Positions 395-19,741 of a stretch of 24,000 nucleotides of DNA are shown here, piece after piece. The position numbers and the translations under genes are program-made. The DNA is from an uncultured Clostridiaceae bacterium (lineage in GTDB: Bacteria; Bacillota; Clostridia; Clostridiales; Clostridiaceae): positions 3,709,701 to 3,733,700 of the forward strand of contig CAWAAR010000003.1 of the NCBI GenBank assembly GCA_963780135.1, given 5' to 3'. Each line of letters opens with the position of its first letter. Positions within the stretch are counted from its first letter, which is position 1. The notes under the pieces are model-generated. The model ran no database searches and was not told where the DNA came from. It saw nothing but the letters and a program-made list of their open reading frames with translations.

Positions 395-1450
395 TCAGCT
401 TATTATCACGCAGTTCCCACCATTATTTTTAGCTTTATAAAGTGCTCTATCTGCTCGTTTAAACCAGCATTCAAAAGATTCTGACTTTCGTCTTTCAGCT
501 ACACCTATACTAGCAGTTACTTGTCCCATATTTGGATACAAAGTTGACATAATAGATTGGCGCAATTTTTCTGCTAATATACGTCCTCTACTTAAATCTA
601 TTTGTGGTGCTAATATGGCAAATTCATCTCCACCCCATCTTGCAAATATATCATATTCACTGATTAATTTAATGCCTATATCTGCTACCTTCATCAAAAC
701 CTTATCCCCGGCGTCATGTCCACAAATATCATTAACACTTTTAAATTGATCTATATCTAAAAGAATTAATGTAAGTGGATCACTGTTGCTATTAGGTTCT
801 TCTATCTTTTCTATTATCTTTTTCTCAAAGAAATATCGATTATACAAATTAGTCACTTTGTCAGTAATAGCAATATTTTTTAGATGTTTGTTTTTATCAA
901 ACAATTCTTTCGTTAATCTAGATAGCTTTTTTTCTGACTCTCTCAAATTTTTAATAACTTCATTTTTTTCATGGATTTCATTTTTTAATCTTAATTCAAA
1001 TTTTTTTCTTTCTGTTAAATCTCTCGATACACCTAAAATATCCACATAATTTGTCTTTTCATTAAATACAAGTTTTGTAGATATTTCTATTGTCTTTATT
1101 TTTCCATCCTTACAGTATTGTTGAAACTCATCAATGCTGGATAAGATTTCTGAACTTTTGCTCCCTTCTAAAAACTCCTGTATTCTTTTTTCATTAATAA
1201 TTATTGATATCTTTTCTAAAGATTCTGGTGTTAATGAATCTTTAAGTTTTTCTTTCATTGCTTCGTTAGCATCTATTCCTCGTAAATCGATAATAGAAGG
1301 ACTAATATATTTAAAACACTTATTTGCTAAATCAAATAGCCATATACATTCAACTGTGTTTTCCACAATTAATTTATATATTTCAATACTTTCTAAACTA
1401 TCTTCTCCTTCACATTCTCTATTTTTTATTTTCTTATTTAAAATTTTCAT
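395..1450 (-). CDS. PAS-domain diguanylate cyclase (PAS, coiled coil, GGDEF)
   Basis: 351-aa ORF with AAGGTAGG 8 nt before ATG 1450. The GGDEF domain has an intact active site (TNLYNRYFF, LLDIDQFKSVNDICGHDAGD, ARWGGDEFAIL, RADRALYKAKNNGGN). No RxxD I-site is visible just upstream of GGDEF. The N-terminal region is PAS-like (YKLIVENTVECIWLFD). Confidence 0.9.
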   Translation of the reverse strand: MKILNKKIKNRECEGEDSLESIEIYKLIVENTVECIWLFDLANKCFKYISPSIIDLRGIDANEAMKEKLKDSLTPESLEKISIIINEKRIQEFLEGSKSSEILSSIDEFQQYCKDGKIKTIEISTKLVFNEKTNYVDILGVSRDLTERKKFELRLKNEIHEKNEVIKNLRESEKKLSRLTKELFDKNKHLKNIAITDKVTNLYNRYFFEKKIIEKIEEPNSNSDPLTLILLDIDQFKSVNDICGHDAGDKVLMKVADIGIKLISEYDIFARWGGDEFAILAPQIDLSRGRILAEKLRQSIMSTLYPNMGQVTASIGVAERRKSESFECWFKRADRALYKAKNNGGNCVIIS

Positions 1451-1715
1451 TTTAGTAACCTACCTTAACTATAGCTTGTCCTTTTGCTGCTTAGTTTTAT
1501 ACCAAACAGTAAATTTGTTTCTAAAATTTAAAATCCGTTTTTTATGCACCTAAACTAGCCAAAATAAACATCCACATAACTATTGTTTTTACCTATTAAT
1601 ACTAATACCATAAATTTATTAAAAAACTCTTCCACTTTACATAAGCAAGCTCTCTTATGTAAAAAAACTAGTATAGCTAGATATATCATCATATGCAATA
1701 GAAGTATCCTGGTAG

Positions 1716-1766
1716 TTAAAAAAAGTGATTAGTATATGTTAATTTTCAAAATATATACTAACCACT
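1716..1766 (-). terminator. Rho-independent terminator after the PocR-MCP gene
   Basis: A 14-bp stem (1753-1766 atatactaaccact pairs with 1724-1737 agtgattagtatat, one G-U/mismatch) and a 15-nt loop. On the minus strand it is followed by a run of 7 T (plus-strand A-run 1717-1723). It sits 5 nt after the stop at 1771. Confidence 0.55.
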
Positions 1767-1770
1767 TATT

Positions 1771-2817
1771 TTATTTATGAGAGTTTGCTAAACCATTCAG
1801 CTCTTCTGTCAGTTCTGTAACTTCCTGTAAATTTGCAGTAACTTCTTGAATTGCAGCCGATTGCTGCTCTGTGGTTTCTAGTGTGGACTTAGACGATTCC
1901 ATAGTTTTATCCACCGATTCATGTATCTTACCTGTAAGTTCTGATATTTTTAAAGCTGTTTGCTTAGAGTTTTGAGATAACTTACCTATTTCTTTTGCAA
2001 CAACACCAAAACCCCTTCCTGCTTCTCCTGCTCTAGCTGCTTCTATGGATGCATTTAATCCAAGCATTTTAGTTTGGTCCGCTATGCTTTTTATTGAATC
2101 AAGTATTGAGTTAATTTCCGTAGATATATCTTTTACATTAACTATCTCTTGACTTAAAATATGTTGATTATTTGTAACATTAACTGATGATGCTGATAGT
2201 TCTTCCATAGTTGCTGAAATTTGATTAAAATTATCAGAAAGCACTCGAGACATGCTTTTTATTTTTAATTCTTCATATCCTGTTTTCGACAATGCATTGG
2301 CTATAATATACAGTACCTCTGCAGCTGCTTTCACGCTTTTTTCAGTAGTAACTTTTACTTTATTTACTACTTCCACATATCCATCTTCATTAACACCTAT
2401 TTCTTTTGCCGCTTCTCTATATTTTGATTCATTAGGTTTAGAAGTCAATAATTGTCCTCCTAAAATTGTTCCAATTTGCTTACCTTCTATTAATATAGGT
2501 GCAGCAAAATCAATTAGTCCTGCATGACAAGTGTAAACACATGGTCTTCCTGTTTTTGCAGCTTCTTCTCCGCCTTTTCTGTGAGATTCAGCACATCTAT
2601 CATAACCTACTTTAGTAGACTGTGTGAACTTCATACAAAAATCTGTATATGAACTAGGTTTAGTTACTGGATTTCCATTAACATCTACTGTTATACTAGC
2701 AATATCCATACTTTCTGAAAAATTGTCTTGAAATTTTTGAAGCAGTTCAATATCAATAACATCTTTTATTTCAAGTAAATTCAAATCAAAATCATTACCA
2801 TTAATTATTTTTAACAT
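1771..2817 (-). CDS. Soluble chemoreceptor: PocR sensory domain fused to a short MCP signalling hairpin
   Basis: PocR signature: [66 protein letters not shown] highly conserved tip: [30 protein letters not shown]. No TM segment and no HAMP. The ORF track starts at TTG 2832, but GGAGAAG lies 8 nt before ATG 2817 (MLKIINGND...), so 2817 is preferred. Confidence 0.85.
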
Positions 2818-2852
2818 AATAAACTTCTCCAATACAATAAAATTATTTAACC

Positions 2853-4550
2853 TTAGAGTTTAAATTTATTTAACTCTTTTGTTAATTGCTCTGCTGAACT
2901 AGTTAAACTTTGTGCAGTTTCAGATACAGAACCTGCAGAATTTTTCATCTCATGTGATGAAGCTGCAATTTCCTCTGCTGCTGCTGAATTTTCTTCTGAT
3001 ACAGCACTAGTATTCTCTATTTTCGATGCTACTGGCACCATATCACTATCCAATTTACTAATACCTACTGAAACCTTTTGTATATCAGGTATTATAATCT
3101 CTACAGCATCTATAATAGATTTAAATGAGTCTACAGCTGTATTTATTGTTGTTACTTCATTATTTAACTGTTTATTAACATCACCTGAGGTTTTTGCTAA
3201 ATTAGATGTCTCAGATGACACATTATTTAATAATCCACTAATTGTGTCAGAAGAATTTTTACTTTGATCTGCTAGCTTTCGGATTTCATCAGCTACCACA
3301 GAAAAGCCTCTTCCTGATTCTCCTGCCCTAGCAGCCTCAATTGCTGCATTAAGTGCAAGCAAATTTGTCTGTTCTGATATACTATTTATTAAGCTTGTTA
3401 TCTCATTAGCTTGATTTATGCTTATTTGAAGCTGTTTTATTCTATTTATTATTCCTTCAAAAGAATTGCTAATATTATTTAAGGATTCAACTAATCTTTC
3501 TAACTGCTTATTGCTTGTATTTGCCATACTGCCAATATTTCCTGTTACACTATTAGCTTCACCAATTAAAGTAGCAAACTCTTTTAGGGAAAAACCAAAT
3601 TCCTTTATAGAATCATTTACAAACATAAGTTCACCTGCCTGTTCAGTAGAACCATTAGCTACTTCTTCAATTGCTCCTGCAACCTCATCAGAGGTTGAAA
3701 ACATTTCTTCTGAAAGTGCATATAAACTCGATGCTCCTTGATCAATAGTGCAAGCAGTAGTTGTTATATTTCCTAATAAAGCTGCTATAGAATTTCTCAT
3801 ACTAAATAGCTGTTTATTCATATTGCCGAATTCTGTATTTGAAGAAGTATCTATTTCTGATGTAAAATCTCCTGAAGCTATTGTCTTTATAGTATTTGTC
3901 ATCTCATTTAAAAGCAATTTTAAATTAGAAACAAACAATACAGATATAAATAATAATAATAAAGTAGAAATAATTGCAACTATTATAAATGCTCTGTTAG
4001 AATAAATGGACTCTTTTTTATATTCTATGGTTTCAGCTGCTATAAGAGAGTTTTTATTTGCTATAGCACTTTTTATCCCTTCAGTAATGGAAGTCCCTTT
4101 CTTTGTAATTTGATCAGTCTGATTCTTAGTTATTTCAAGTCCTGATTTTTTTCTATTCTTCTCCTCATTATATATACTCATATAACTTGTATAATTATTT
4201 TCTATCTGTTTTACTTTTGCTGATTCATTATTATCTAATCCTATAGCTTTTATCTTTGTAAAACAGTCTTTCATTCTAGCATCTTCATTTTCAACATCCT
4301 TAATTTGTTCCTCTGAATAAGGTCTGTCAATAAATCTAGTCATGTATATCCTTAGTTCATTAAAATTTCCATTTATATCCCCATATCTCTCTATTACAGC
4401 AACATCACTAGAACTTAATTTAGTATAGTATTTATTAAGTTTTGAAGACGTTGTAAAACTAATAACTCCTATAAAGCTCAATGCTATAAATGATATAAGT
4501 ATCAAAGCCATAGTTCCCTGAATTAATTTTATTTTCTTTCTCAATTTCAT
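2853..4550 (-). CDS. Transmembrane methyl-accepting chemotaxis protein (two TM, ~150-aa extracytoplasmic helical sensor, HAMP, MCP signalling domain)
   Basis: TM1 is [21 protein letters not shown] and TM2 is [22 protein letters not shown]. The MCP tip is [33 protein letters not shown]. The ORF track starts at 4571, but GAAGGGGA lies 8 nt before the ATG at 4550 (MKLRKKIKL...), so 4550 is preferred. The stop is 35 nt upstream of the PocR-MCP start, so the two are probably co-transcribed. Confidence 0.9.
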
Positions 4551-4670
4551 TTGTTTATCCCCTTCATGCATTTTGTTTTGTAAATTTATATAGTTTAAAA
4601 TGATAGTATAAGACCAAAATTGTTTTCTACAAAATTATCCTTATTAATTCAAAAAAGCTGTTTAGTATGT

Positions 4671-4719
4671 AGAAAAAAGGATAATCGTGTATCCTTGTTT
4701 ACTATACACAATTATCCTT
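4671..4719 (-). terminator. Rho-independent terminator after the AraC-type response regulator gene
   Basis: A 15-bp stem (4705-4719 tacacaattatcctt pairs with 4677-4691 aaggataatcgtgta, 14/15) and a 13-nt loop. The minus strand continues with a T-run (CCTTTTTTCT). Confidence 0.55.
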
Positions 4720-4773
4720 ATTAATTTAATGAAAAATATCATGTTCTTACCCTGAAATTTGTTAGATTATATG
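4717..4773 (-). repeat. Copy A of a ~57-bp intergenic motif shared with 6025-6082
   Basis: cttattaattta-atgaaaaatatcatgttcttaccctgaaatttgttagattatatg aligns with cttattaatttaaatgaaaaatatcatgtttttatcctgatttttgttggattttatt, about 50 of 57 positions identical by hand alignment. Both copies have the same orientation and both lie just 3' of a minus-strand stop codon. The core aattatccttattaatt also recurs perfectly at 4633-4649 and 4710-4726. Confidence 0.6.
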
Positions 4774-4816: not shown

Positions 4817-5923
4817 CTAATTTGTTTTAGATATGCACTCACATTTAAAATTTGATGGTGATGTTCCTGTATATTTTTTAAATAATTTACCAAAATATTC
4901 AACATCTTTATATCCTAATTTATCAGCAATCTCATAATTTTTCATATTTCTATCCACCAATAACATTTTTGCTCTTTCCATTTTAACCATGGTTATATAC
5001 TCAACAAGAGATATTCCTGTATTTTTTTTGTATACTGTACTTAGATAGGAGCTATTTAAAAACATTTTATCTGCAATATTTCTAACAGAAATTTCAGTAT
5101 CAGTATTTTCAAGAACTACTTTGCATATTTGCCTGGTCATACTATTGACTGCGTTTCCAAAATCAAACTTTTTGACATTTATAATAAGCTCATTTATTAT
5201 TTGCAAAAAAGTTGTTCTGCTACCAGAAAAGTCAGAACACCTTGTAAAATCAATATCAATATACTTTGAAATATTTATAAACTTATGTAACCATGGATAT
5301 ATTCGCTCCATGTCTTCAATTAAATCTTCTACCATTTTATTTAAAACGTATGCCATTTTCATGGAATCATAATTAATAGCAGCAGCTGTAGTTTCAACTA
5401 AATTTGAAGCTACTTCAAGTACTCTTAAATCTGCATCCTTAAATAATCTGATTACTTTCTCGAGATCTTCTCTTTTATATAAAGTTTCTATTTTTTCTTC
5501 AAGCTGAACTTCCAAATTTTCGATTTTTTCCTTTTCCAGTCTTTTTGCAGTTATGTATTTTGAAGTCCTCTGCAGTAAATACTCCATTTTTTCCTCATCA
5601 ACAGGTTTTACAATATAATCAAAAGCTCCATATACAAGACCTTGCCTTGCATACTCAAACTCAGTATATTCACTTAAAAAAATAACACAAAGGCATAATT
5701 CTTTTTGGATAACCTTTTTCAAAAGATCTACACCATCCATAATTGGCATTTTTATGTCTGTGATTATAAGATCTACAGTTCTTTTTTCTAGCTTTTTAAG
5801 AGCTTCTTGTCCATTTTTAGCTTCATCTACAATAACAAATCCAGTTTGATCACCCCATACTTTTAATCTTTTTAGCTCTCTTCTCATAATTTCCATATCA
5901 TCTACAATCATAACCTGAAACAA
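4817..5923 (-). CDS. Response regulator with an AraC-type HTH output (YesN-like: REC, linker, HTH_AraC)
   Basis: The REC domain has MIVDDMEIMRR and the phospho-acceptor context DLIITDIKMPIMDG. The C-terminal AraC HTH has SVRNIADKMFLNSSYLSTVYKKNTGISLVEYITMVKMERAKMLL...YEIADKLGYKDVEYFGKLFKKYTGTSPSNF. TTG start at 5923 with GAGGTGAGG upstream. The internal ATG at 5911 is 16 nt from the RBS, which is too far. Confidence 0.9.
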   Translation of the reverse strand: MFQVMIVDDMEIMRRELKRLKVWGDQTGFVIVDEAKNGQEALKKLEKRTVDLIITDIKMPIMDGVDLLKKVIQKELCLCVIFLSEYTEFEYARQGLVYGAFDYIVKPVDEEKMEYLLQRTSKYITAKRLEKEKIENLEVQLEEKIETLYKREDLEKVIRLFKDADLRVLEVASNLVETTAAAINYDSMKMAYVLNKMVEDLIEDMERIYPWLHKFINISKYIDIDFTRCSDFSGSRTTFLQIINELIINVKKFDFGNAVNSMTRQICKVVLENTDTEISVRNIADKMFLNSSYLSTVYKKNTGISLVEYITMVKMERAKMLLVDRNMKNYEIADKLGYKDVEYFGKLFKKYTGTSPSNFKCECISKTN

Positions 5924-6024: not shown

Positions 6025-6082
6025 CTTATTAATTTAAATGAAAAATATCATGTTTTTATCCTGATTTTTGTTGGATTTTATT
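6025..6082 (-). repeat. Copy B of the ~57-bp intergenic motif (see 4717-4773)
   Basis: Same sequence family and same orientation as copy A. It lies 12 nt after the REC-kinase stop (6095) and about 100 nt upstream of the AraC-RR start (5923). Confidence 0.6.
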
Positions 6083-6094
6083 ATAATTTGTCAT

Positions 6095-7222
6095 TTAGTC
6101 AGTAATATTAGGTAAAGTGAAATATACTGTTGCTCCTTCATTTAATTTACCCTCAATCCAAGTTTTTCCTCCATGCTTTTGAACTATTTTACGAACAGCA
6201 GCAAGTCCTATTCCACTCCCCTCAAATTCATCTGAGGAATGTAAACGCTCAAATATTCGAAATAATTTTCCTGAGAACTCCATATCAATACCCACACCAT
6301 TATCCTTTACATAGAAAACATACTCACTAACACCTCTTTTGCATCCAGCAATTATAAGTGCTTTTTCTCTATTTCCAGTAAATTTTATGGCATTGGAAAT
6401 TATATTATAAATTACTTGTTTTATCATAATTACATCTGCAAAAACAAGAGGCATTCCTGTTTCAAATTCAAATTCAATGGCTCTTTTTGAATAAATTGAT
6501 TTAAGTTCTTTAAAAGCCGAAGTGAACATTTCACTTATATTTACACTTTCTTTGCATATCTCTAGACGATTAGTTGTTGAATATTGTAGTAATTTTCCAA
6601 CCATAGTAATCATATCTCTACATATATCTTTTATATTAGAAACCATTTCACTAGCATCTTTATCTAGTAATGTCCTATAATCTTCAAGAATTATTTTGCT
6701 GTATCCTTGAATAGCCCTTAAGGGTGATTTTAAATCATGAGACACAGTATATGAAAAAGATTCAAGTTCATTAACAGCAGCTTCAAGCTCTAATTTTTTT
6801 TCTTCAAGAATTTCATTGCGCTGTGCTAACTCATACTGAGCAAGCTTCAACGACAAATGAGTATGTACCCTAGCTTTAACTTCAAGAATTTCAAAAGGTT
6901 TAGTTATATAGTCAACAGCACCTAATTCAAAACATTTTGTTTTACTGATTATATCTGTCATGGCAGTTAAAAAAATTATAGGTATGTCTTTTGCTAATTT
7001 ATTTTCTTTGATTCTCTTACATACTTCATATCCATCCATAATAGGCATCATAATATCTAATAAAATTATATCTGGAATCTCTATTTCTAAACTTTCTAAT
7101 GCAGATTTTCCATCCGTTGCAACTGAAATTTCATAATCATCACCAAAAGCTTCTACAAGAATATCAATATTTTCTTCTGTATCATCAACAATCAGCACTG
7201 TACACTCTGAAAGTTCTTTCAT
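6095..7222 (-). CDS. REC-histidine kinase (N-terminal receiver, coiled coil, HisKA, HATPase_c)
   Basis: REC: [39 protein letters not shown]. HisKA H-box: [20 protein letters not shown]. HATPase: [33 protein letters not shown]. The ATG at 7222 overlaps the upstream stop (TAATG), indicating translational coupling. Confidence 0.9.
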   Translation of the reverse strand: [375 protein letters not shown]

Positions 7223-9519
7223 TATATTTCCTCCCCTTTAAGATTATTCATTAATACTTCAAGTATATCAAGTGCTTCCTTAAATTTATATTTCAAAACA
7301 AACCTCTCAATTTCTGCAGCATTTTTTTGGATTTCTACCGGCCATACTAATTTTCTATATTCTTTCATAACTTCAGCACATTTTTTAGGTTTTCGAGTTT
7401 TCAAATAAGGTTTAAGCTCATTCATAATTTTTAATATTTCATTTTTGGATGAAACATTACCAGTTACCATAGCCACCTGCTCATCTTCTGGAAGTACACT
7501 TTCAAGAGCTTTTATCATTTTACTAAGCATAACACTTGTCTCTCTCAACATGGTGTTAAGTATATCAGAAGAAATCCTTTTTTTAATGGCCTCTTCTAAA
7601 CTAGCTGCCTTTTCCTGAATAACCACAGCACCAATAGTTCCAGATACCCCCTTTAAAGTGTGCGCAATACGTTCTGCAGTAAGAAAGTCCCCCTCTGAAA
7701 TCACTTTTTCAATTTGCATAATTGCATCCTTTTGTCCTAACACATATTTTTTCAATAAATTTATATATGATTTTTTCTTTCCAAGTACCCTTCTTAACCC
7801 AAGTGATGTATCAAGTCCAGGAATGCCTACTACAAAGTCATCTGAACATGTATTTACTGAAGCTTTAAATTTTACTTTTTCAGTACTTACTTTTCTAAAT
7901 GGAATCCATTTTAAAAGTATTGAAAACAACTGATTAGGATCTATAGGTTTAGATATATAATCATTCATACCTGCTTGTATACACTTATTCTGATCATTGG
8001 TCATTACATTAGCAGTCATTGCAATAATAGGTAATGCTAATCTCTTTATATTTCTTCTAATTTCTTTTGTTGCTGTTACACCATCCATTACTGGCATCTG
8101 CATGTCCATAAGTACAATATCGTATTTATTCTCCCTAACTTTATCCACTGCAATTTTTCCATTTTTAGCAAAATCTATTGAAAACTCGCCTTCTTGTAAT
8201 AGGTCAACTGCAACCTGCACATTTAGTTCATTATCTTCCACTAATAATATCCGGGCTCCACTGATTACTGTAAGAGATTCATTGTTTTTTAAAGGTTCAT
8301 CCATCTTTTGTGTTGCTTTACCAATACCAAGTTTTGCAGTAAACCAAAAAGTACTTCCTATTCCAAGTTCAGTTTCAACTCCAACCTGGCCTTCCATTAG
8401 AGTTGCCAATTCTTTAGAAATAGCAAGCCCCAGACCTGTACCTCCATACTTTCTAGTTATAGAAGTATCGGCCTGTTGAAAGGATTGAAAAAGTTCACCT
8501 TTTTGTTCTTCAGTCATACCAAGTCCTGTATCCTGAACCTCAAACTTTATTACACACTGATCAAGTAATTCTTCTTCTTTGCGAATTCTTACAACTATTT
8601 GTCCTTTTTCAGTGAATTTAACTGCATTGCTTACATAATTAATAAGAATTTGTCCTACTCTTAAGGGATCACCGCATAAATTCTTTGGTAATTCAGTATC
8701 TAAATCAAAGATTAGTTGAAGACCCTTTGAAGCACATTTGTCACCAATAAGATTTTCTAGATTATCTAGTACCTCAGCCAGTTTAAAACTGGTTTTCTCA
8801 ATTTTAAGCTTTCCTGCTTCGATTTTAGAAAAGTCCAATATATCATTTATTACACCTAACAAATGCTGATTGGATTGGGATATCTTGTTAATATAATCCC
8901 TTTGTTTGGTATTTAGATCTGTTTTTTCAATTAAATAAGTCATTCCCATAATAGCATTTATTGGAGTTCGAATTTCATGACTCATATTTGCTAAAAAATC
9001 CGACTTCGTTTTAGCAGCCTCCTCAGCACGTTCCTTAGCATCCCTTAATTCTTCTGCTTGTACTAGCAATTTATCATTCTTTTTTTTAAGCTCAACCATA
9101 AGTTCTTGTCTTGATGGTATGGATAGTACTTTTTTTAACTCTTCTATTTCTTCTTTACTAATAGAAAATTTCATATCTTTTATGTAAGAAAATGCTTCTA
9201 TAATTAATGAATTATCCTCTAATTTCCTTATAAAGTAATTATCAAAAATTTCATTACCAAATTCAAGATTCTCTTTAGTTACTATTTTCGATAATTTAAA
9301 TAATAAAGCTTTTTTTTCATATATATCTGTTATAAAAATTGAAATCAGTATATCTTTATTATTGCAATAACATCTACGACATATTTCCGATATAGCAACT
9401 TCAATTCTTGTGGTTTTTATATCAGTATACCCAAAGCTTGTAACTAGTCCTCGTATTTTCTTTCTAGCTTCAATTATAGAATCGATGTTCATTATTTTGA
9501 GAATGCCTAATTCAATCAT
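7222..9519 (-). CDS. Soluble hybrid sensor histidine kinase: unassigned ~135-aa N-terminal domain, coiled coil, HisKA, HATPase_c, REC, Hpt
   Basis: H-box FLANMSHEIRTPINAI (His181). HATPase: VSNAVKFT, QDTGLGM, GGTGLGLAISKELATLMEG. REC: ILLVEDNELN, DIVLMDMQMPVMDG, AMTANV, ISKPI. Hpt: AHTLKGVSGTIGA. No hydrophobic TM stretch is visible. AAGAGGT lies 8 nt before ATG 9519, and the start is 22 nt after the rsbX-like stop. Confidence 0.9.
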   Translation of the reverse strand: MIELGILKIMNIDSIIEARKKIRGLVTSFGYTDIKTTRIEVAISEICRRCYCNNKDILISIFITDIYEKKALLFKLSKIVTKENLEFGNEIFDNYFIRKLEDNSLIIEAFSYIKDMKFSISKEEIEELKKVLSIPSRQELMVELKKKNDKLLVQAEELRDAKERAEEAAKTKSDFLANMSHEIRTPINAIMGMTYLIEKTDLNTKQRDYINKISQSNQHLLGVINDILDFSKIEAGKLKIEKTSFKLAEVLDNLENLIGDKCASKGLQLIFDLDTELPKNLCGDPLRVGQILINYVSNAVKFTEKGQIVVRIRKEEELLDQCVIKFEVQDTGLGMTEEQKGELFQSFQQADTSITRKYGGTGLGLAISKELATLMEGQVGVETELGIGSTFWFTAKLGIGKATQKMDEPLKNNESLTVISGARILLVEDNELNVQVAVDLLQEGEFSIDFAKNGKIAVDKVRENKYDIVLMDMQMPVMDGVTATKEIRRNIKRLALPIIAMTANVMTNDQNKCIQAGMNDYISKPIDPNQLFSILLKWIPFRKVSTEKVKFKASVNTCSDDFVVGIPGLDTSLGLRRVLGKKKSYINLLKKYVLGQKDAIMQIEKVISEGDFLTAERIAHTLKGVSGTIGAVVIQEKAASLEEAIKKRISSDILNTMLRETSVMLSKMIKALESVLPEDEQVAMVTGNVSSKNEILKIMNELKPYLKTRKPKKCAEVMKEYRKLVWPVEIQKNAAEIERFVLKYKFKEALDILEVLMNNLKGEEI

Positions 9520-9541: not shown

Positions 9542-10141
9542 TCATATTAAATATTTTAGCACAATGCAAGATTCATCATCATTTTTTTTACTAAATTTTT
9601 CTAATATTCCTTGTGCAATATTTTCAGCATTTTCTTTTAGTAATCCTCTACATTCAAAGGATTCAAAATGTTCTTTAATACCATCTGAATGCAAAAGTAA
9701 AATTTCTCCTCCATGAAGTTTTAAACTGTGTTTGTGAGGATTGGTTATTCTATAGCCAATGACACCACCTTTTGATACAAACCTAATAGGCTTTGGCCAC
9801 ATAATTCTAACAGTAATATTTCCTATTCCAACATAACTGAGTTCACCAGTTACCATATCTAAATTACATATTGCTGCAACAGCTCCTCTGGTTCCCTTTA
9901 AATGTTCATGCAGACCATTCATAATGTCCACTATGTCCTTACAATAATTATTCTCCAAGTATGTTTTTGCATATAGTGCTACTTTTCTTGCTTCTGATCC
10001 ATGTCCAAGTATATCAACTAAAGCCAAAAAACAATTATTTCCATACTTTTTAATAATACCTATATCACCACACTCTGATTCGTCTCCAAGTAATGCTTTG
10101 TAAACCATGCCTAACTCAATATCTGACATTATCTCTTCCAT
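9542..10141 (-). CDS. rsbX: RsbX-like PP2C/SpoIIE-family serine phosphatase
   Basis: About 195-199 aa, a single PP2C-like domain (GDIGIIKKYGNNCFLALVDILGHGSEA, GAVAAICNLD, LLLHSDGIKE). It sits fourth in an R-S-T-X gene order. The start is ambiguous: ATG 10141 overlaps rsbT by 13 nt, while ATG 10129 forms a TAATG overlap with the rsbT stop. Confidence 0.75.
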   Translation of the reverse strand: MEEIMSDIELGMVYKALLGDESECGDIGIIKKYGNNCFLALVDILGHGSEARKVALYAKTYLENNYCKDIVDIMNGLHEHLKGTRGAVAAICNLDMVTGELSYVGIGNITVRIMWPKPIRFVSKGGVIGYRITNPHKHSLKLHGGEILLLHSDGIKEHFESFECRGLLKENAENIAQGILEKFSKKNDDESCIVLKYLI

Positions 10142-10590
10142 TTACGTGCAAGCACACGCGTTCCCTTTCCTAATATAGCTTCAATATAAAATTCGTCCAT
10201 TATCCTTTTCACACTTGGCAGTCCTAAGCCTAGGCTATGAGGTAAAGAACTGTACTGTTCTTGCATGGCAAGCTCAATATCCATTATTCCAGGACCATTA
10301 TCCTTAGCAAATATTTCAATACCTACACGGCCATCATTTATATTTCTTATAAAACTAATAGTTATTTCACCTTTTTTTGCATATCGAATTATATTTGTTG
10401 ATAATTCAGATGCTGCAGTAGCAATCATAACCTCATCCGTACGCATAAAACCAGCTTTTACAGCCATCTGCCTTGTAACAAATATGATATGCCCATTATT
10501 ATGATCTTCTGCAAGCTTAACAAGAACCATATCCAATAAGCTCACAGTTTTGCCTGCAAAAATAGTAAAGCCATCTTCTATTTCATCCAT
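10129..10590 (-). CDS. rsbT: RsbT-like GHKL serine/threonine protein kinase (anti-sigma-regulatory-factor type)
   Basis: 153 aa. N-box-like ATAASELSTNIIRYA, G1 DNGPGI, G2 GLGLPSVKRIMDEF. It has no HisKA or dimerisation His domain. AGAGGTG lies 7 nt before ATG 10590. It immediately follows two STAS genes. Confidence 0.8.
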   Translation of the reverse strand: MDEIEDGFTIFAGKTVSLLDMVLVKLAEDHNNGHIIFVTRQMAVKAGFMRTDEVMIATAASELSTNIIRYAKKGEITISFIRNINDGRVGIEIFAKDNGPGIMDIELAMQEQYSSLPHSLGLGLPSVKRIMDEFYIEAILGKGTRVLARKWKR

Positions 10591-10616: not shown

Positions 10617-10985
10617 TTAAGTCTTTGATACTAGTTTAAATCCCTGTTCTAAGTTAATAGCAGCTTTTATACCACTAACATCTACATTTAAATCTAATAG
10701 TGCTGACACAACTCCGGGTTTAAGACCAATCCATACAACATTAACTCCCATAAGTGAAATTGCTTTTGAAGCTTTTTGTAAAAACTTAAATGTATAAGAA
10801 TCCATTCCTTTTAACATACTTAAATCAAGTATAGCACTAACTATTGAAACGTTATTAGCTTTTGTTATTATTCTGCTAATACCTAGTTCTATCTCTTTAT
10901 CAGTAATTTCACTTGGCAGTGTTACAATAAGACACCCTTCTACTACTGTCACTGATGTTTTAAAATCATAATCAAACTCTATCAT
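10617..10985 (-). CDS. rsbS: RsbS-like single-domain STAS protein
   Basis: 122 aa, STAS only. The conserved phosphorylatable serine context is ILDLSMLKGMDSYTFKFL (Ser63), comparable to the RsbS Ser in the D-S-F/Y motif. AAGGAAG RBS overlaps the rsbR stop. Confidence 0.8.
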   Translation of the reverse strand: MIEFDYDFKTSVTVVEGCLIVTLPSEITDKEIELGISRIITKANNVSIVSAILDLSMLKGMDSYTFKFLQKASKAISLMGVNVVWIGLKPGVVSALLDLNVDVSGIKAAINLEQGFKLVSKT

Positions 10986-10995
10986 AGCATCTTCC

Positions 10996-11808
10996 TTATA
11001 ATTCTTTTTTATGTTTCACTTCTAAATTAAGTATTGAAAAAGCTTCAGCCAAGGCATCGCTTAAAGTAGCCTTTGTTTTTATGCTTTCCATGTCAATTCC
11101 TAGTTCAATAATAGTTTGTGCCACTGCTGGAGATATCCCAGAAATTATACATTCACAGCCCATAAGTTTTGTAGCCTTCGTTATTTTAATAAGATGATTT
11201 GCTACAGCAGTATCTACAGCAGCAACCCCATGAATATCCATTATTATAACTTTAGAATATGTTTCCATTATTTTGTTTAGCATACTTTCCATCATATGCT
11301 GTGCTCTCATAGAATCAACCACACCTACAACCGGAAGAACCAGAACTCCTTCCCATAATTCTATAGTCGGTGTTGACATCTCACGTATGGTTTGGCTTTG
11401 TTCCCTTACTCTTTCTTCATATTGAACTCTTTCCATTATATCAATGATAAACTCAAGACCTCCAATTATATTATCATTTTCATCTTTTAAAGGAACAGAA
11501 AAATATTCCATAGGCATTTTCAAGTTATTAATTGTTACTTCATTTCGTGCAGAACACATTTTTCCACTTTCAATAGCTTTAATCATACAACACTGCTCCG
11601 TATTACAATGCAATGAATTAAAAAGGTCACAACACCTTTTGCCTAAAATGTCCTCCTTGCTTTTCTTTACAGTTTTTTGTCCCGCCTTATTTATATAAGT
11701 TACTCTTAATTCTTTATCCACTGCCATTACTGTAGTTGGTATTTGATCAAGAATCTGCATTTTTATCGTACTATTTGCTTCCTCAAAATTTTCAGTGATA
11801 TTATCCAT
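10996..11808 (-). CDS. rsbR: RsbR-like stressosome sensor: Cys-rich PAS domain plus C-terminal STAS
   Basis: 270 aa. The linker/STAS block TPTIELWEGVLVLPVVGVVDSMRAQ...IIMDIHGVAAVDTAVANHL...ISGISPAVAQTIIELG is typical of RsbR paralogues. Thr200 (in VDT) and Thr232 (in AQT) sit in the motif contexts of the two RsbT-target threonines of B. subtilis RsbRA. The N-terminal PAS (LDQIPTTVMAVDKELRVTYINKAG...) carries CC-x6-HC-x4-CC-x10-C. AGGAGGAAAAG precedes ATG 11808. Confidence 0.8.
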   Translation of the reverse strand: MDNITENFEEANSTIKMQILDQIPTTVMAVDKELRVTYINKAGQKTVKKSKEDILGKRCCDLFNSLHCNTEQCCMIKAIESGKMCSARNEVTINNLKMPMEYFSVPLKDENDNIIGGLEFIIDIMERVQYEERVREQSQTIREMSTPTIELWEGVLVLPVVGVVDSMRAQHMMESMLNKIMETYSKVIIMDIHGVAAVDTAVANHLIKITKATKLMGCECIISGISPAVAQTIIELGIDMESIKTKATLSDALAEAFSILNLEVKHKKEL

Positions 11809-11904: not shown

Positions 11905-12062
11905 TTTATTTTTCAACTATCTAGTTTCCATATAATACAACTTATAACAAAGGTGTTTTTTTGTTTTTATTTTAGTTTACTTTAAATTTTAATTTACATA
12001 ATATTATATTTGTTAACTGCACTTAATAAAGCTTTTAATACTAAAAAATATTACATTAAATT

Positions 12063-12115
12063 GAGAAAAACTCACCTTCATTGTCCTCTGTCAATTGATC
12101 TCTCAAAAAAAGTTG
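12063..12115 (+). repeat. Solo copy of the terminal repeat of the MITE-like element at 19458-19741
   Basis: gagaaaaactcaccttcattgtcctctgtcaattgatctctcaaaaaaagttgtg aligns with the right arm gaagaaaacttaccttcactgtcctctgtcctatgtcaattgtcctctaaaaaatgcttcg. Most positions match, with a 7-nt gap. No convincing opposite arm is seen nearby. Confidence 0.5.
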
Positions 12116-12124
12116 TGTCACATC

Positions 12125-12153
12125 TTGCTTAAACTGCGAAAATTAAGTAATAT
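12125..12153 (+). promoter_or_regulatory. Candidate sigma-A-type promoter for the REC-HD-GYP gene
   Basis: TTGCTT (12125-12130), a 17-nt spacer, then TAATAT (12148-12153). It lies about 65 nt upstream of ATG 12219. Pattern match only. Confidence 0.35.
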
Positions 12154-12170
12154 AAGTTTAAGTAAACACA

Positions 12171-12198
12171 AAGTTTGTTAAAATCTAGCAACAAACTT
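12171..12198 (+). promoter_or_regulatory. Perfect 9-bp inverted repeat (AAGTTTGTT-N10-AACAAACTT) abutting the RBS of the HD-GYP gene: operator or 5'-UTR hairpin
   Basis: aagtttgtt (12171-12179) and aacaaactt (12190-12198) are exact reverse complements. AGGGAGG (12201-12207) follows 2 nt later. Confidence 0.35.
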
Positions 12199-12218
12199 AA
12201 AGGGAGGTGCAAAATAAC

Positions 12219-13337
12219 ATGAAAAAACTTTCTGAATGTATGGTGCTTATTGTTGATGATACGGAAGCTAATGTGGATATCCTTGTAGAAGCCTTTGGTG
12301 ACGATTATGAAATATCCGTTGCTATGGATGGAGAATCTGCTCTTGAAAATATAGGAATGGAATTGCCTGACATAATTTTATTGGATATTATGATGCCTGA
12401 TATGGATGGGTATGAACTATGCCGCCGTATCAAAGAAAATAAAGCTACTGCAGAAATTCCTATTATATTTTTAACAGCCATGACAGATATAGTAAGCAAA
12501 ACAAAAGGCTTTGAACTTGGTGCAGTGGATTATATAATTAAACCTTTTGAAATTCTTGAGGTAAAAGCTAGGGTACATACCCACCTGTCCTTGAGACTTG
12601 CACAATATGAGTTATCAAAGCAAAATGAACTTCTTGAGATAAAAGTAATAGAAAGAACAAAGGAGCTTAATCTTACCCAAGAAGCAACTATTGAAGCAAT
12701 GGCTTGTCTAGCAGAATATCGTGATCCTGAAACTGGAGGTCATATAAAACGCACAAAAAATTATATAAAAATATTGGCAGAGGAACTAAAAAAAACTTCA
12801 AAGTTCAAGGATATTTTGCTTAACGAAACCATAGAACTTTTGTACAAATCCGCACCTCTCCATGATATCGGCAAAATAGGTATAAGAGATGATATTTTGC
12901 TTAAAAATGACAAATTAACCCCTGAAGAATTTGAAGAAATGAAAAAACATACACTTTTAGGATATTACTCACTGTTAAAAGCTTCTTCAAAACTTGGTAA
13001 TAATTCTTTTTTAAAATGTGCAATGGAACTTACGCGCTCTCATCAAGAAAAATGGGATGGAACAGGTTATCCAGATGGTCTAAGGGGAGAAGATATTCCT
13101 TTACCTGGAAGACTTATGGCAGTGTCAGATGTTTATGATGCACTTATCAGTAAACGAGTCTACAAACCTGCTTTTTCTCATAAAAAAGCTGTTCAAATAA
13201 TTCTTGAAGGTAGGGGCCATCACTTTGATCCTGAGATTGTTGATGCATTCATGAATATTCATGAAGAATTCCGAAAAATTGCATATAAATATGCTGATTG
13301 TGAGGAAGAACGTACTGCCCTGAATAATTCAATTTAG
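12219..13337 (+). CDS. Response regulator with an HD-GYP c-di-GMP phosphodiesterase output (RpfG-like, REC + HD-GYP)
   Basis: REC: VLIVDDTEANVDIL, IILLDIMMPDMDG, FLTAMTD, IIKPF. HD-GYP: GGHIKRTKNY, APLHDIGKIGI, HTLLGY, SHQEKWDGTGYPDGL, RLMAVSDVYDALISKRVYK. The ORF track begins at GTG 12207, which lies inside the RBS AGGGAGG. ATG 12219 sits 11 nt after that RBS and is preferred. Confidence 0.9.
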   Translation: MKKLSECMVLIVDDTEANVDILVEAFGDDYEISVAMDGESALENIGMELPDIILLDIMMPDMDGYELCRRIKENKATAEIPIIFLTAMTDIVSKTKGFELGAVDYIIKPFEILEVKARVHTHLSLRLAQYELSKQNELLEIKVIERTKELNLTQEATIEAMACLAEYRDPETGGHIKRTKNYIKILAEELKKTSKFKDILLNETIELLYKSAPLHDIGKIGIRDDILLKNDKLTPEEFEEMKKHTLLGYYSLLKASSKLGNNSFLKCAMELTRSHQEKWDGTGYPDGLRGEDIPLPGRLMAVSDVYDALISKRVYKPAFSHKKAVQIILEGRGHHFDPEIVDAFMNIHEEFRKIAYKYADCEEERTALNNSI

Positions 13338-13737: not shown

Positions 13738-14736
13738 TTAATCTTTATTTTTTTCTTCAGTATCATTTATATGCTTATTGTCTTCTTGATTCTTTTCTTC
13801 AACATCATTTATTTGCTTATTGCCCTCTTTATTCTTTTCTTCATTATCATTTATATGCTTAAAAACATCATCTTCTTTTTCAGAAGGTTTCTTTTTAAAT
13901 ACACTTAATATTTTCTTAAATAATCCACCTATACCTAGAATTACTACTATCCATATTTTTTTAAATATAATTAATATTTTCGCAAATAAACCAGCTTTTA
14001 CAGCAGCCGCTCCTGCACCTCCTGCTATCAATGCTGTTAAACCTAAATCAGAAACTTTATCACCTTTCATGTAATCAGTGTATTTCTTACCTTCTTTGTA
14101 AGAATATTTACTGATTATCTTTTCTAATTGAGGTTTAACTTTGTCCATTTCATCTTTTCCTGCAACTAAAGTAACTTCAGTCACTCCACCACGTCCAAGA
14201 ATTCTTACGTTATAATTTACTAATTTTCCTTTATCATCACTACATAAAGTTGACCAAACCAGGTTATGGGTTTTTTCGTCATAATGTGGTTTTTCATCCC
14301 ACCCAATTACATTTAAGGTAGGTTGTCCTTTTTCCTTTCTCTTCTTATTATCTTCTTCTGTTCCCTCTTTTATATCTTTTAATAATTTGTCAGCATCTAT
14401 TTTTTTCCCTTGGTTATCTTTAACATACCCTATGGAATCAAATTCAAATAAAATATACCAATTCTGATTTTCATCTTTTGAAAAAACTATTCCCTGTTCT
14501 ATTCCAGTAACAGTGTTGTCCATTTTTTTCATTAACTTTTTTGCATCTTCTCCATTAGCAAAAATATAATCCTCTGGTAAATCCAATTTTCCTAAGTTGC
14601 TTCCTACATCTACTGTTTTAGGACCTTCTATCCATTTTACATCCGTTGGCGAAGATTCTCCCGCTGCACATACAGAACCTATATTAAATATGATTGCAGT
14701 TAGAATTAGTAATAAACATGTTAATTTCTTTTTCAT
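13738..14736 (-). CDS. DUF2167-family membrane-anchored protein with a repetitive acidic/lysine-rich C-terminal tail
   Basis: Signal peptide MKKKLTCLLLILTAIIFNIGSVCAAGE. DUF2167-like core: WIEGPKTVDVGSNLGKLDLPEDYIF...NWYILFEFDSIGYVKD...IGWDEKPHYDEKTHNLVWS...NYNVRILGRGGVTEVTLVA. C-terminal TM region: LTALIAGGAGAAAVKAGLFAKILIIFKKIWIVVILGIGGLF. AAGGGGAGA RBS. Confidence 0.75.
   Translation of the reverse strand: MKKKLTCLLLILTAIIFNIGSVCAAGESSPTDVKWIEGPKTVDVGSNLGKLDLPEDYIFANGEDAKKLMKKMDNTVTGIEQGIVFSKDENQNWYILFEFDSIGYVKDNQGKKIDADKLLKDIKEGTEEDNKKRKEKGQPTLNVIGWDEKPHYDEKTHNLVWSTLCSDDKGKLVNYNVRILGRGGVTEVTLVAGKDEMDKVKPQLEKIISKYSYKEGKKYTDYMKGDKVSDLGLTALIAGGAGAAAVKAGLFAKILIIFKKIWIVVILGIGGLFKKILSVFKKKPSEKEDDVFKHINDNEEKNKEGNKQINDVEEKNQEDNKHINDTEEKNKD
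13741..13860 (-). repeat. In-frame 42-bp tandem repeat, about 2.9 copies, encoding K(H/Q)INDxEEKNxExN units
   Basis: Units at 13741-13776 (truncated), 13777-13818 and 13819-13860, e.g. attgtcttcttgattcttttcttcaacatcatttatttgctt versus attgccctctttattcttttcttcattatcatttatatgctt. Confidence 0.8.
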
Positions 14737-19457: not shown

Positions 19458-19741
19458 GCGAAGCATTTTTTTTGAGAGGACAGAGGACAGTGAAGGAGGA
19501 TTTTTCTCCGCTACACTACGAAAAATCTTTAATTTAAAAGAAACTCCTGCTCTTTTGTTTCTCAGGGCTACTCTCTGAGTAAGCGATTATATGAAAATCA
19601 TAGATTTTAGATGCCTTCTTAAGCTATGTTTTGCATTAGCAAAACAAGCCTAAAAAATAAATTAGTTTTCCGACGTAAGGAAGAAAACTTACCTTCACTG
19701 TCCTCTGTCCTATGTCAATTGTCCTCTAAAAAATGCTTCGC
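19458..19741. mobile_element. MITE-like non-coding element (~284 bp) bounded by long imperfect terminal inverted repeats
   Basis: The left end is gcgaagcattttttttgagaggacagaggacagtgaagg. The reverse complement of the right end is gcgaagcattttttagaggacaattgacataggacagaggacagtgaagg. The first 14 nt and the 15-nt agaggacagtgaagg block are identical, separated by one indel. Weaker complementarity continues to about 75 nt per arm. There is no credible ORF inside. A solo arm copy lies at 12063-12115. Confidence 0.6.

Follow-up and report, generated by a model that had tools for sequence, protein, structure and literature searches.

We analysed a 24,000-nt stretch of DNA (the window; guanine-cytosine content 29%) from an uncultured Clostridiaceae bacterium, in which two closely similar receiver (REC) domains are joined to two different outputs on either side of a stressosome gene module. 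The first receiver begins a REC-kinase of 375 residues with the order Response_reg-HisKA-HATPase_c (open reading frame 6095-7222, minus strand). Its REC and linker helix, residues 1-139 (copy A), are encoded at 6806..7222 (Pfam Response_reg 9-119, E = 4e-27), and its kinase core at 6095..6805 (Pfam HisKA 154-216, HATPase_c 263-371), both on the minus strand. The second receiver begins a REC-HD-GYP protein of 372 residues, counted from an ATG with a Shine-Dalgarno sequence (open reading frame 12219-13337, plus strand). Its REC and linker helix, again residues 1-139 (copy B), are encoded at 12219..12635 (Pfam Response_reg 9-119, E = 8e-27), and the HD-GYP output domain, a predicted phosphodiesterase of cyclic di-GMP (c-di-GMP), at 12636..13337 (Pfam HD_5 E = 5e-28, HD E = 2e-16), both on the plus strand.

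The REC-kinase gene follows a gene for a hybrid histidine kinase of 765 residues (7222..9519, minus strand), and the stop codon of the latter overlaps the ATG of the former by 1 nt. The hybrid kinase contains all four Pfam domains of an RpfC-type kinase, HisKA (172-236), HATPase_c (283-397), Response_reg (424-534), and a C-terminal histidine phosphotransfer domain (Hpt, 599-657). Its translation contains the phosphorylation motifs SHEIR (H-box), LMDMQMP with the receiver aspartate, and HTLKG in the Hpt. Since the relay of the hybrid kinase runs His-Asp-His, a terminal receiver is required.

The genes of RsbR, RsbS, RsbT, and RsbX are contiguous on the minus strand in the order R-S-T-X. They encode an RsbR-like sensor (10996..11808; Pfam PAS_4 20-128, STAS 150-252), an RsbS-like single STAS protein (10617..10985; Pfam STAS, E = 5e-7), an RsbT-like serine/threonine switch kinase (10129..10590; Pfam HATPase_c_2 and HATPase_c), and an RsbX-like PP2C phosphatase, the feedback phosphatase of stressosomes (9542..10141; Pfam SpoIIE/PP2C, E = 5e-10). 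An earlier description of the window made from its letters only (the sequence-only reading) had seen the rsb genes and missed that they form a complete stressosome module (RSTX). The R-S-T-X order recurs in seven related loci, the position of the RsbX-like gene is kept in all, and the RsbT-like protein is 54-88% identical across eight loci. The REC-HD-GYP gene is divergent from rsbR and lies 2.7 kb from the hybrid-kinase gene. On the other side of the cluster, the REC-kinase gene is followed by that of a REC-AraC transcription regulator (4817..5923, minus strand; Pfam Response_reg, HTH_18, HTH_AraC).

Two copies of a receiver cassette

The 5' ends of the REC-kinase and REC-HD-GYP open reading frames are the arms of an inverted repeat (6789-7229 and 12212-12652; 441 nt each, 80% complementary, 4982 nt apart). 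In an ungapped comparison, 113 of 139 residues and 337 of 417 nucleotides (80.8%) are identical between the two copies. These counts agree with the sequence-only reading, exactly for its hand count of about 26 differing residues, and closely for its imperfect inverted repeat of about 420 bp, with arms about 80% identical and 5 kb apart. BLASTP of one protein against the other gives 117/151 identities (E = 4e-80). The other three receivers of the window (hybrid kinase, REC-AraC, and an OmpR-type regulator) are, as had also been noticed, far more divergent, with 27-45% identity to the pair and to one another versus 83% for the pair. The similarity of the pair is far beyond chance.

The similarity continues into the linker helix and then stops abruptly, as the sequence-only reading described. 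Identity is 9/10 at residues 121-130, 6/10 at 131-140, 2/10 at 141-150, and 1/10 beyond, and nucleotide identity drops to 8/30 past the protein breakpoint. In an alignment of 36 REC-kinase and 42 REC-HD-GYP homologues, the output type cannot be read from any of columns 1-133; columns 134-135 are strongly diagnostic of it, and from column 143 on every column separates the two families fully. Because identity collapses and diagnostic columns begin there, we place the breakpoint within the post-REC linker helix, at residues 134-143.

Residues D13/D14, D56, T86, and K108 are present in both translations. Segment 101-125 is nearly invariant between the two proteins. At the partner interface, the β4-α4 loop of the pair is identical, and substitutions are E17A and I19V in α1 and T107I in the β5-α5 loop. 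In line with the claim that the two receivers share their specificity residues, the partner-facing segments are near-identical. The receiver of the window kinase is 73-90% identical to those of orthologous kinases and 75-83% identical to those of many HD-GYP proteins from other organisms. The REC-HD-GYP family itself has 60-86% full-length identity across Clostridia, Acetobacterium, and proteobacterial-like sequences. Since this type of receiver is unusually conserved everywhere, 81% for the pair is not exceptional within the family.

Among solved structures, the HD-GYP domain of the window is closest to those of PA4781 (4R8Z, E = 1e-50) and PmGH (4MCW, E = 2e-42), with the motifs aligned. The HD (LHDIGK) and GYP (WDGTGYP) motifs are intact, and where the two solved enzymes have HHE the window protein has HQE, as do most relay-linked members of the family (homologues P0241-P0360). 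The site lies at window 13120-13160 (residues ~300-312), where HQEKWDG[ST]GYP replaces HHERWDG.GYP of the solved enzymes and the second histidine is thereby glutamine; some family members, e.g. P0245-P0247, P0279, and P0301, retain HH.

Related loci and the origin of the pair

The closest named orthologues are those of Clostridium tagluense, Clostridium sp. JS66, and Clostridium sp. AWRP. A Logan contig with 100% identity runs collinear with the window through both arms of the repeat. A relative with ~91% nucleotide identity (L082) has the gene order of the window, and two deletions have reduced its HD-GYP gene to a 66-residue remnant. Positions 4964-5273 of L082 correspond to window 11924-13232: window 12459-13232 is deleted, 11924-12355 is replaced by 108 nt, and a fragment of the receiver, 66 residues long, remains. 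In a Logan metagenome contig (L085), the order is RSTX, hybrid kinase, REC-kinase, REC-AraC, methyl-accepting chemotaxis protein (MCP), and REC-HD-GYP, all on a single strand. In JS66 (L087), it is REC-kinase, REC-AraC, RSTX, hybrid kinase, REC-HD-GYP (starting 2 nt after the kinase), and MCPs. C. tagluense (L083) and AWRP (L084) have a JS66-like order with no HD-GYP gene within 10 kb. A Marinisporobacter metagenome-assembled genome (L088) and Acetobacterium woodii (L089) have six genes only, RSTX, hybrid kinase, and REC-HD-GYP, in the same order as metagenome locus L101. Two further loci (L090 and L091) carry a homologue with 64% identity, the gene of which overlaps the end of a gene for a CHASE-PAS hybrid kinase with Hpt, without a stressosome. 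Close relatives of this homologue are named Candidatus Contendobacter or Gammaproteobacteria, and we call it proteobacterial-like.

In the window and in several of these loci, the gene of the regulator is linked to that of the kinase. REC-HD-GYP begins 1-3 nt after the hybrid kinase in Marinisporobacter, A. woodii, and JS66, and direct adjacency is found also at the P0332 locus. Among the matches listed, 64 more distant REC-HD-GYP loci (40-60% relatives) have enough upstream sequence, and an Hpt ends within 450 nt upstream of REC-HD-GYP in at least 25 of the 64, a lower bound, since the Hpt profile was derived from 8 close sequences. The RSTX module is present in two or three of the distant loci. 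The neighbourhoods suggest a rule, namely that a receiver of this type comes after a hybrid kinase that carries an Hpt. REC-kinase fills the slot behind the hybrid kinase, with a tight junction, in the window, L082, and L085. In the window and in five of five related loci (L082, L083, L084, L085, and L087), REC-AraC is directly downstream of REC-kinase; its receiver has 31-33% identity to the shared cassette. The sequence-only reading proposed a second kinase as an output and missed that this kinase has a conserved REC-AraC neighbour of its own.

Neighbour-joining trees (131 columns, 300 bootstraps) separate the two receivers of the window. The kinase receiver clusters with its orthologues P0121/P0122 at 97% bootstrap and the HD-GYP receiver with its orthologues P0242/P0243 at 79%, and the two are sisters in 0/300 bootstraps. 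Kinase receivers and Clostridium-type HD-GYP receivers group to the exclusion of the Acetobacterium type at 70%. By the Nei-Gojobori method, the proportions of synonymous (pS) and nonsynonymous (pN) differences of the pair are 0.50 and 0.11 (dN/dS ~0.15). The pS approaches that of kinase orthologues between species (0.57-0.67), indicating that the pair arose nearly as early as these species did. A recent duplication in place is ruled out by the bootstraps and the pS together. Of the domain duplication claimed in the sequence-only reading, common descent as a REC-linker cassette is therefore retained, and a recent or local copy is not. The same pair of receivers occurs in other Clostridium genomes, which points to an ancient, family-wide duplication.

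The kinase core is unrelated to the HD-GYP protein, and its closest non-orthologous relatives are PAS-histidine kinases (53-62% identity). Because of this relationship and because diagnostic columns start in the linker helix, REC-kinase is a chimera fused in that helix. Comparison of the gene orders shows HD-GYP to be the ancestral output and the kinase a derived addition, the ancestral layout being RsbRSTX, then hybrid kinase, then REC-HD-GYP.

Just upstream of REC-HD-GYP lies a stretch (AACAAACTTAAAGGGAGG...; 12190..12218, plus strand) that cross-species alignment identifies as a hybrid-kinase relic, left from the 3' end of such a gene. In both the window and L085, the ~30 nt ahead of the relocated HD-GYP gene match the coding 3' end of the hybrid kinase and its junction with the next gene. 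The shared sequence reads AACAAACTTAAAGGAG..., and the first 14 nt of the window copy equal the L085 kinase 3' end exactly. Hybrid-kinase genes of L085, JS66, and AWRP have 3' ends that align with the relic; further upstream the likeness vanishes. Within the window alone the signal is weak (p about 0.08), but the relic is convincing because the cross-species alignment supports it. Therefore, the receiver copy was once directly behind a hybrid kinase, and the unit that was moved or duplicated included the end of that gene. In a Clostridium lineage, the cassette and ~30 nt of the kinase 3' end were thus duplicated, and one copy was fused to a core derived from PAS-kinases.

The copies have exchanged sequence in one relative. 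The L085 pair has 92% amino-acid identity and pS 0.32, compared with pS 0.43-0.67 for each copy versus its orthologues. In the trees, the kinase receiver of L085 clusters with those of HD-GYP proteins (68% bootstrap), and the rest of that kinase is orthologous to the window kinase. The L085 pair thus bears the signature of gene conversion. The JS66 pair is 73% identical. In the window, the pS of the pair is slightly under the between-species kinase values of 0.57-0.61, and the kinase receiver has HD-type residues at the scattered positions 19, 88, and 95. Conversion in the window lineage is equivocal, since near-basal branching within the kinase group explains the HD-like residues equally well. 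Taken together, the pair is old and under purifying selection; in some relatives conversion has homogenised it, and in some only the kinase branch is left.

A proposed branched relay and its alternatives

We think it reasonably probable that the cluster encodes a multistep phosphorelay under stressosome control that ends in two receivers of the same type, both of which would be fed by the Hpt of the hybrid kinase. A signal at RsbR would release RsbT, which would activate the hybrid kinase. Phosphate would pass from His to Asp to His of the Hpt, and the Hpt would phosphorylate D56 of both receivers. Phosphorylated REC-HD-GYP would lower c-di-GMP. Phosphorylated REC-kinase would switch its kinase core and thereby phosphorylate REC-AraC, which would alter transcription; plausible targets are the neighbouring genes for chemoreceptors and the GGDEF protein. 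A shared Hpt is suggested because REC-HD-GYP follows the Hpt kinase in A. woodii, Marinisporobacter, JS66, and the proteobacterial-like contig, because REC-kinase occupies that same slot in the window, and because the partner-facing segments of the receivers are nearly identical, with no column separating the families. The adjacent Hpt, already named as the common donor in the sequence-only reading, is thus strengthened by comparative gene neighbourhood; the branch itself is still a prediction.

The N-terminal domain of the hybrid kinase (residues 1-135; window 9115-9519, minus strand) is conserved in eight loci, with 29-79% identity from Acetobacterium to Clostridium and 25 invariant residues. 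In Pfam, at E values up to 10, nothing matches residues 1-173 of the hybrid kinase or the eight orthologous N-terminal domains. Comparison with an RsbT profile gives a weak, unconfirmed likeness to the N-box helix of GHKL proteins (probability 8%, P = 0.004). We regard the domain as a candidate docking domain for the stressosome output.

Several points weigh against the proposed relay. Past the domain architecture, we infer all of it from gene neighbourhood. The HD-GYP branch is dispensable, being a remnant in L082 and absent within 10 kb in C. tagluense and AWRP; therefore, the kinase may have replaced HD-GYP rather than joined it. The HD-GYP gene of the window is no longer co-transcribed with the hybrid kinase. 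In α1, position 17, a known specificity position, tends to differ between the families (E versus A; mutual information 0.30), and position 61, beside the active site, is I versus D. Monophyly of the kinase receivers has 12-22% bootstrap, and the deep REC phylogeny is not settled with 131 columns. The glutamine of HQE falls in the metal-binding HHE motif, and catalysis by the HD-GYP domain of the window is a prediction. With Pfam, no RsbU_N domain is found in the N-terminal part of the hybrid kinase or in the eight orthologous domains, and single-sequence AlphaFold reached a pLDDT of only 49 for the fold of this domain, which is unusable. In addition, the RsbT-D1 interaction was not detected in Vibrio (PMC9237108).

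The alternative that survives best, in our view unlikely, is a replacement in progress, in which REC-kinase and REC-AraC took the receiver slot, HD-GYP is a decaying or separately wired leftover, and the pathway has a single output. This would agree with the two deletions that leave 66 residues of HD-GYP in L082, the closest relative, with the lack of HD-GYP in the clusters of C. tagluense and AWRP, and with the move of the window HD-GYP gene out of the operon onto the opposite strand. However, the HD-GYP gene of the window has stayed intact, with purifying selection seen in pN 0.04-0.10 versus its orthologues, the two genes coexist in the cluster in three arrangements (window, L085, and JS66), and in JS66 HD-GYP keeps the slot while REC-kinase is also present.

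Next in plausibility, and likewise unlikely, is that the resemblance is inherited conservation only, such that a slow-evolving type of receiver is retained in two proteins insulated by a few substitutions and served by different donors. The 60-86% identity of the REC-HD-GYP family across distant taxa is in line with this, as is the fact that the kinase receiver is as near to foreign HD-GYP receivers (75-83%) as to that of its own genome. The partner-facing positions 17, 19, and 88 moreover show family tendencies (mutual information 0.30-0.44). Against insulation, the cluster holds no other Hpt-bearing donor candidate, REC-kinase is translationally coupled directly behind the Hpt kinase, and the window kinase receiver carries HD-type residues at 19, 88, and 95. 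Duplicated two-component paralogues usually diverge at interface residues and so avoid cross-talk, but the divergence expected of insulated paralogues is not seen in the pair.

A further account, also unlikely, makes the REC-linker cassette a mobile specificity module actively kept alike in both proteins, with recurrent conversion, of which L085 gives a clear case, preserving recognition by a single Hpt and cassette recombination repeatedly rewiring the co-transcribed output. It would account for the three gene orders and for the relic of the kinase 3' end. If true, concerted evolution would maintain cross-talk, the opposite of the usual insulation of two-component pathways after duplication.

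We see little chance that the cassette is shared for heterodimer formation through the α4-β5-α5 face and the helical linker, with kinase and phosphodiesterase regulating each other. The identity does span the whole linker helix to residues 134-142, and segment 101-125 is almost invariant in both proteins; however, homodimer formation by each protein predicts the same conservation, and the kinase family persists in genomes without a nearby HD-GYP gene.

Inversion of the segment between the repeats, proposed in the sequence-only reading, is very unlikely as a programmed switch, that is, with the inverted repeat as a recombination substrate that flips the 5-kb rsbRSTX-kinase segment and so changes which output is co-transcribed with the stressosome operon. 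Judged from the coordinates, a crossover within the receivers would bring back the canonical operon, with REC-HD-GYP at its end, and make REC-kinase/AraC divergent, and both the varied gene order around the cassettes among species and the conversion between copies in L085 are in its favour; but the arms are merely 80% identical, imperfect coding sequence, their longest perfect run is 21 nt (reached by 58% of shuffled arms), there is no recombinase domain among the annotated genes in and around the cluster, and the Logan contig and L082 share the orientation of the window, the inverted arrangement being found at no locus. Of the hallmarks of an invertible segment, flanking inverted repeats are thus present, and a nearby recombinase and both orientations are not found. 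A rare evolutionary rearrangement at the cassettes is possible.

Flanking features and comparison with known systems

Genes for an MCP (2853-4571), a PocR-MCP (1771-2832), and a PAS-GGDEF protein (395-1450), all identified by Pfam, occupy 395..4571 on the minus strand and, judging from linkage alone, probably belong to the same cluster. At least one MCP gene follows the cluster in all five related Clostridium loci. The PAS-GGDEF gene lies after the cluster, and L082 also has an EAL-HDOD gene (L082 17009-18220). Several c-di-GMP enzymes and chemoreceptors are thus grouped with the stressosome relay. An Rfam search of the window found no RNA families.

A 53-nt motif occurs upstream of the REC-AraC gene (6025-6077) and of the first MCP gene (4717-4768), on the minus strand, with 89% identity between the copies. 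It reads AATCYAACAAA..TCAGG.TAA.AACATGATATTTTTCATTAAATTAATAAG, and a further AATTAATAAGGATAATT copy lies at 4623-4659. The long gap between REC-kinase and REC-AraC that holds the motif is found in the window and L082 only; the gaps of other relatives are 1-47 nt. A promoter or operator may have been duplicated here, perhaps the site of the AraC regulator itself.

An element of ~235 bp (19477-19711) is bounded by terminal inverted repeats of 20-33 nt (AGGACAGAGGACAGTGAAGG...). A solo copy of its end lies at 12067-12092, in the divergent intergenic region between rsbR and HD-GYP and within the stretch replaced in L082, and the Logan contig terminates 5 nt ahead of the element. We regard it as a candidate small repeat, dispersed or mobile. 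A DUF2167 gene (13738-14736, minus strand) carries at its 3' end three tandem 42-nt repeats with 83% identity (13742-13867), which encode a repeated acidic and lysine-rich tail (…NDxEEKNKE…). In L082, different genes are found in place of the DUF2167 gene.

In Vibrio vulnificus, the RsbR-S-T-X locus is accompanied by a downstream two-component system, VvD1/VvD2 (Pane-Farre 2005; PMC9237108; PMC10014275), and VvD2 has been proposed to lower c-di-GMP as a D2-type regulator (PMC9237108, PMC10014275). Our comparison rests on the published descriptions of this locus. In both systems, a hybrid sensor kinase comes directly after RSTX, together with a response regulator for which degradation of c-di-GMP is predicted; SigB and RsbU are lacking, and the downstream kinase is without a recognisable RsbU_N (as is Vibrio D1; PMC9237108). 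The six-gene form of A. woodii, Marinisporobacter, and JS66 has that very layout. In contrast to Vibrio, where the sensor domain of RsbR is a globin, it is a PAS domain here, and the window adds REC-kinase, with its copy of the D2-type receiver, and REC-AraC and has the HD-GYP gene on the opposite strand.

RpfC of Xanthomonas campestris is an Hpt hybrid kinase, and transfer from RpfC makes RpfG lower c-di-GMP (PMC3749722). The kinase of the window has the same HisKA-HATPase-REC-Hpt order, and its proposed terminal partner is likewise a REC-HD-GYP protein, which in RpfG is a c-di-GMP phosphodiesterase activated by phosphorylation. The input, however, is a cytoplasmic stressosome module here and a membrane sensor of the diffusible signal factor there; in addition, the window has HQE in place of HHE and a second such receiver that leads to a kinase.

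The proposed relay also resembles branched phosphorelays, in that one histidine phosphodonor would serve two receivers with different outputs. Known examples are CckA-ChpT, which feeds CtrA and CpdR in Caulobacter, and CheA, which feeds CheY and CheB. Unlike in those systems, the receivers here are ~80% identical copies including the linker, and one branch runs via a further kinase to a transcription factor. A stressosome of Moorella thermoacetica with a GGDEF output was reportedly described by Quin et al. in 2012. It too is an RsbRSTX-type module in a Gram-positive anaerobe that controls c-di-GMP rather than a sigma factor. In Moorella, a diguanylate cyclase is acted on directly, whereas here a His-Asp-His-Asp relay would lead to a phosphodiesterase and a kinase.

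Stressosome outputs outside Bacillus and Listeria are poorly understood. In anaerobes, industrial acetogens among them, the cluster ties stress sensing to chemoreceptor genes as well as to the turnover of c-di-GMP. It is a natural example of a pathway branch gained by domain shuffling, in which the receiver and linker of a regulator were re-used on a kinase and a relic of the event survives. The related genomes capture its states: HD-GYP only (ancestral), both branches, homogenised copies, and the HD-GYP branch lost. The absence of interface divergence makes the pair a directly testable case of a maintained shared input. Our analysis suggests that, in several Clostridium species, a second arm, acting on transcription, was added to a route that leads from the stressosome through a hybrid kinase to HD-GYP. 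The base route is already known from the RSTX-D1-D2 loci and resembles RpfC/RpfG; the added arm, a kinase bearing the receiver, is the new part.

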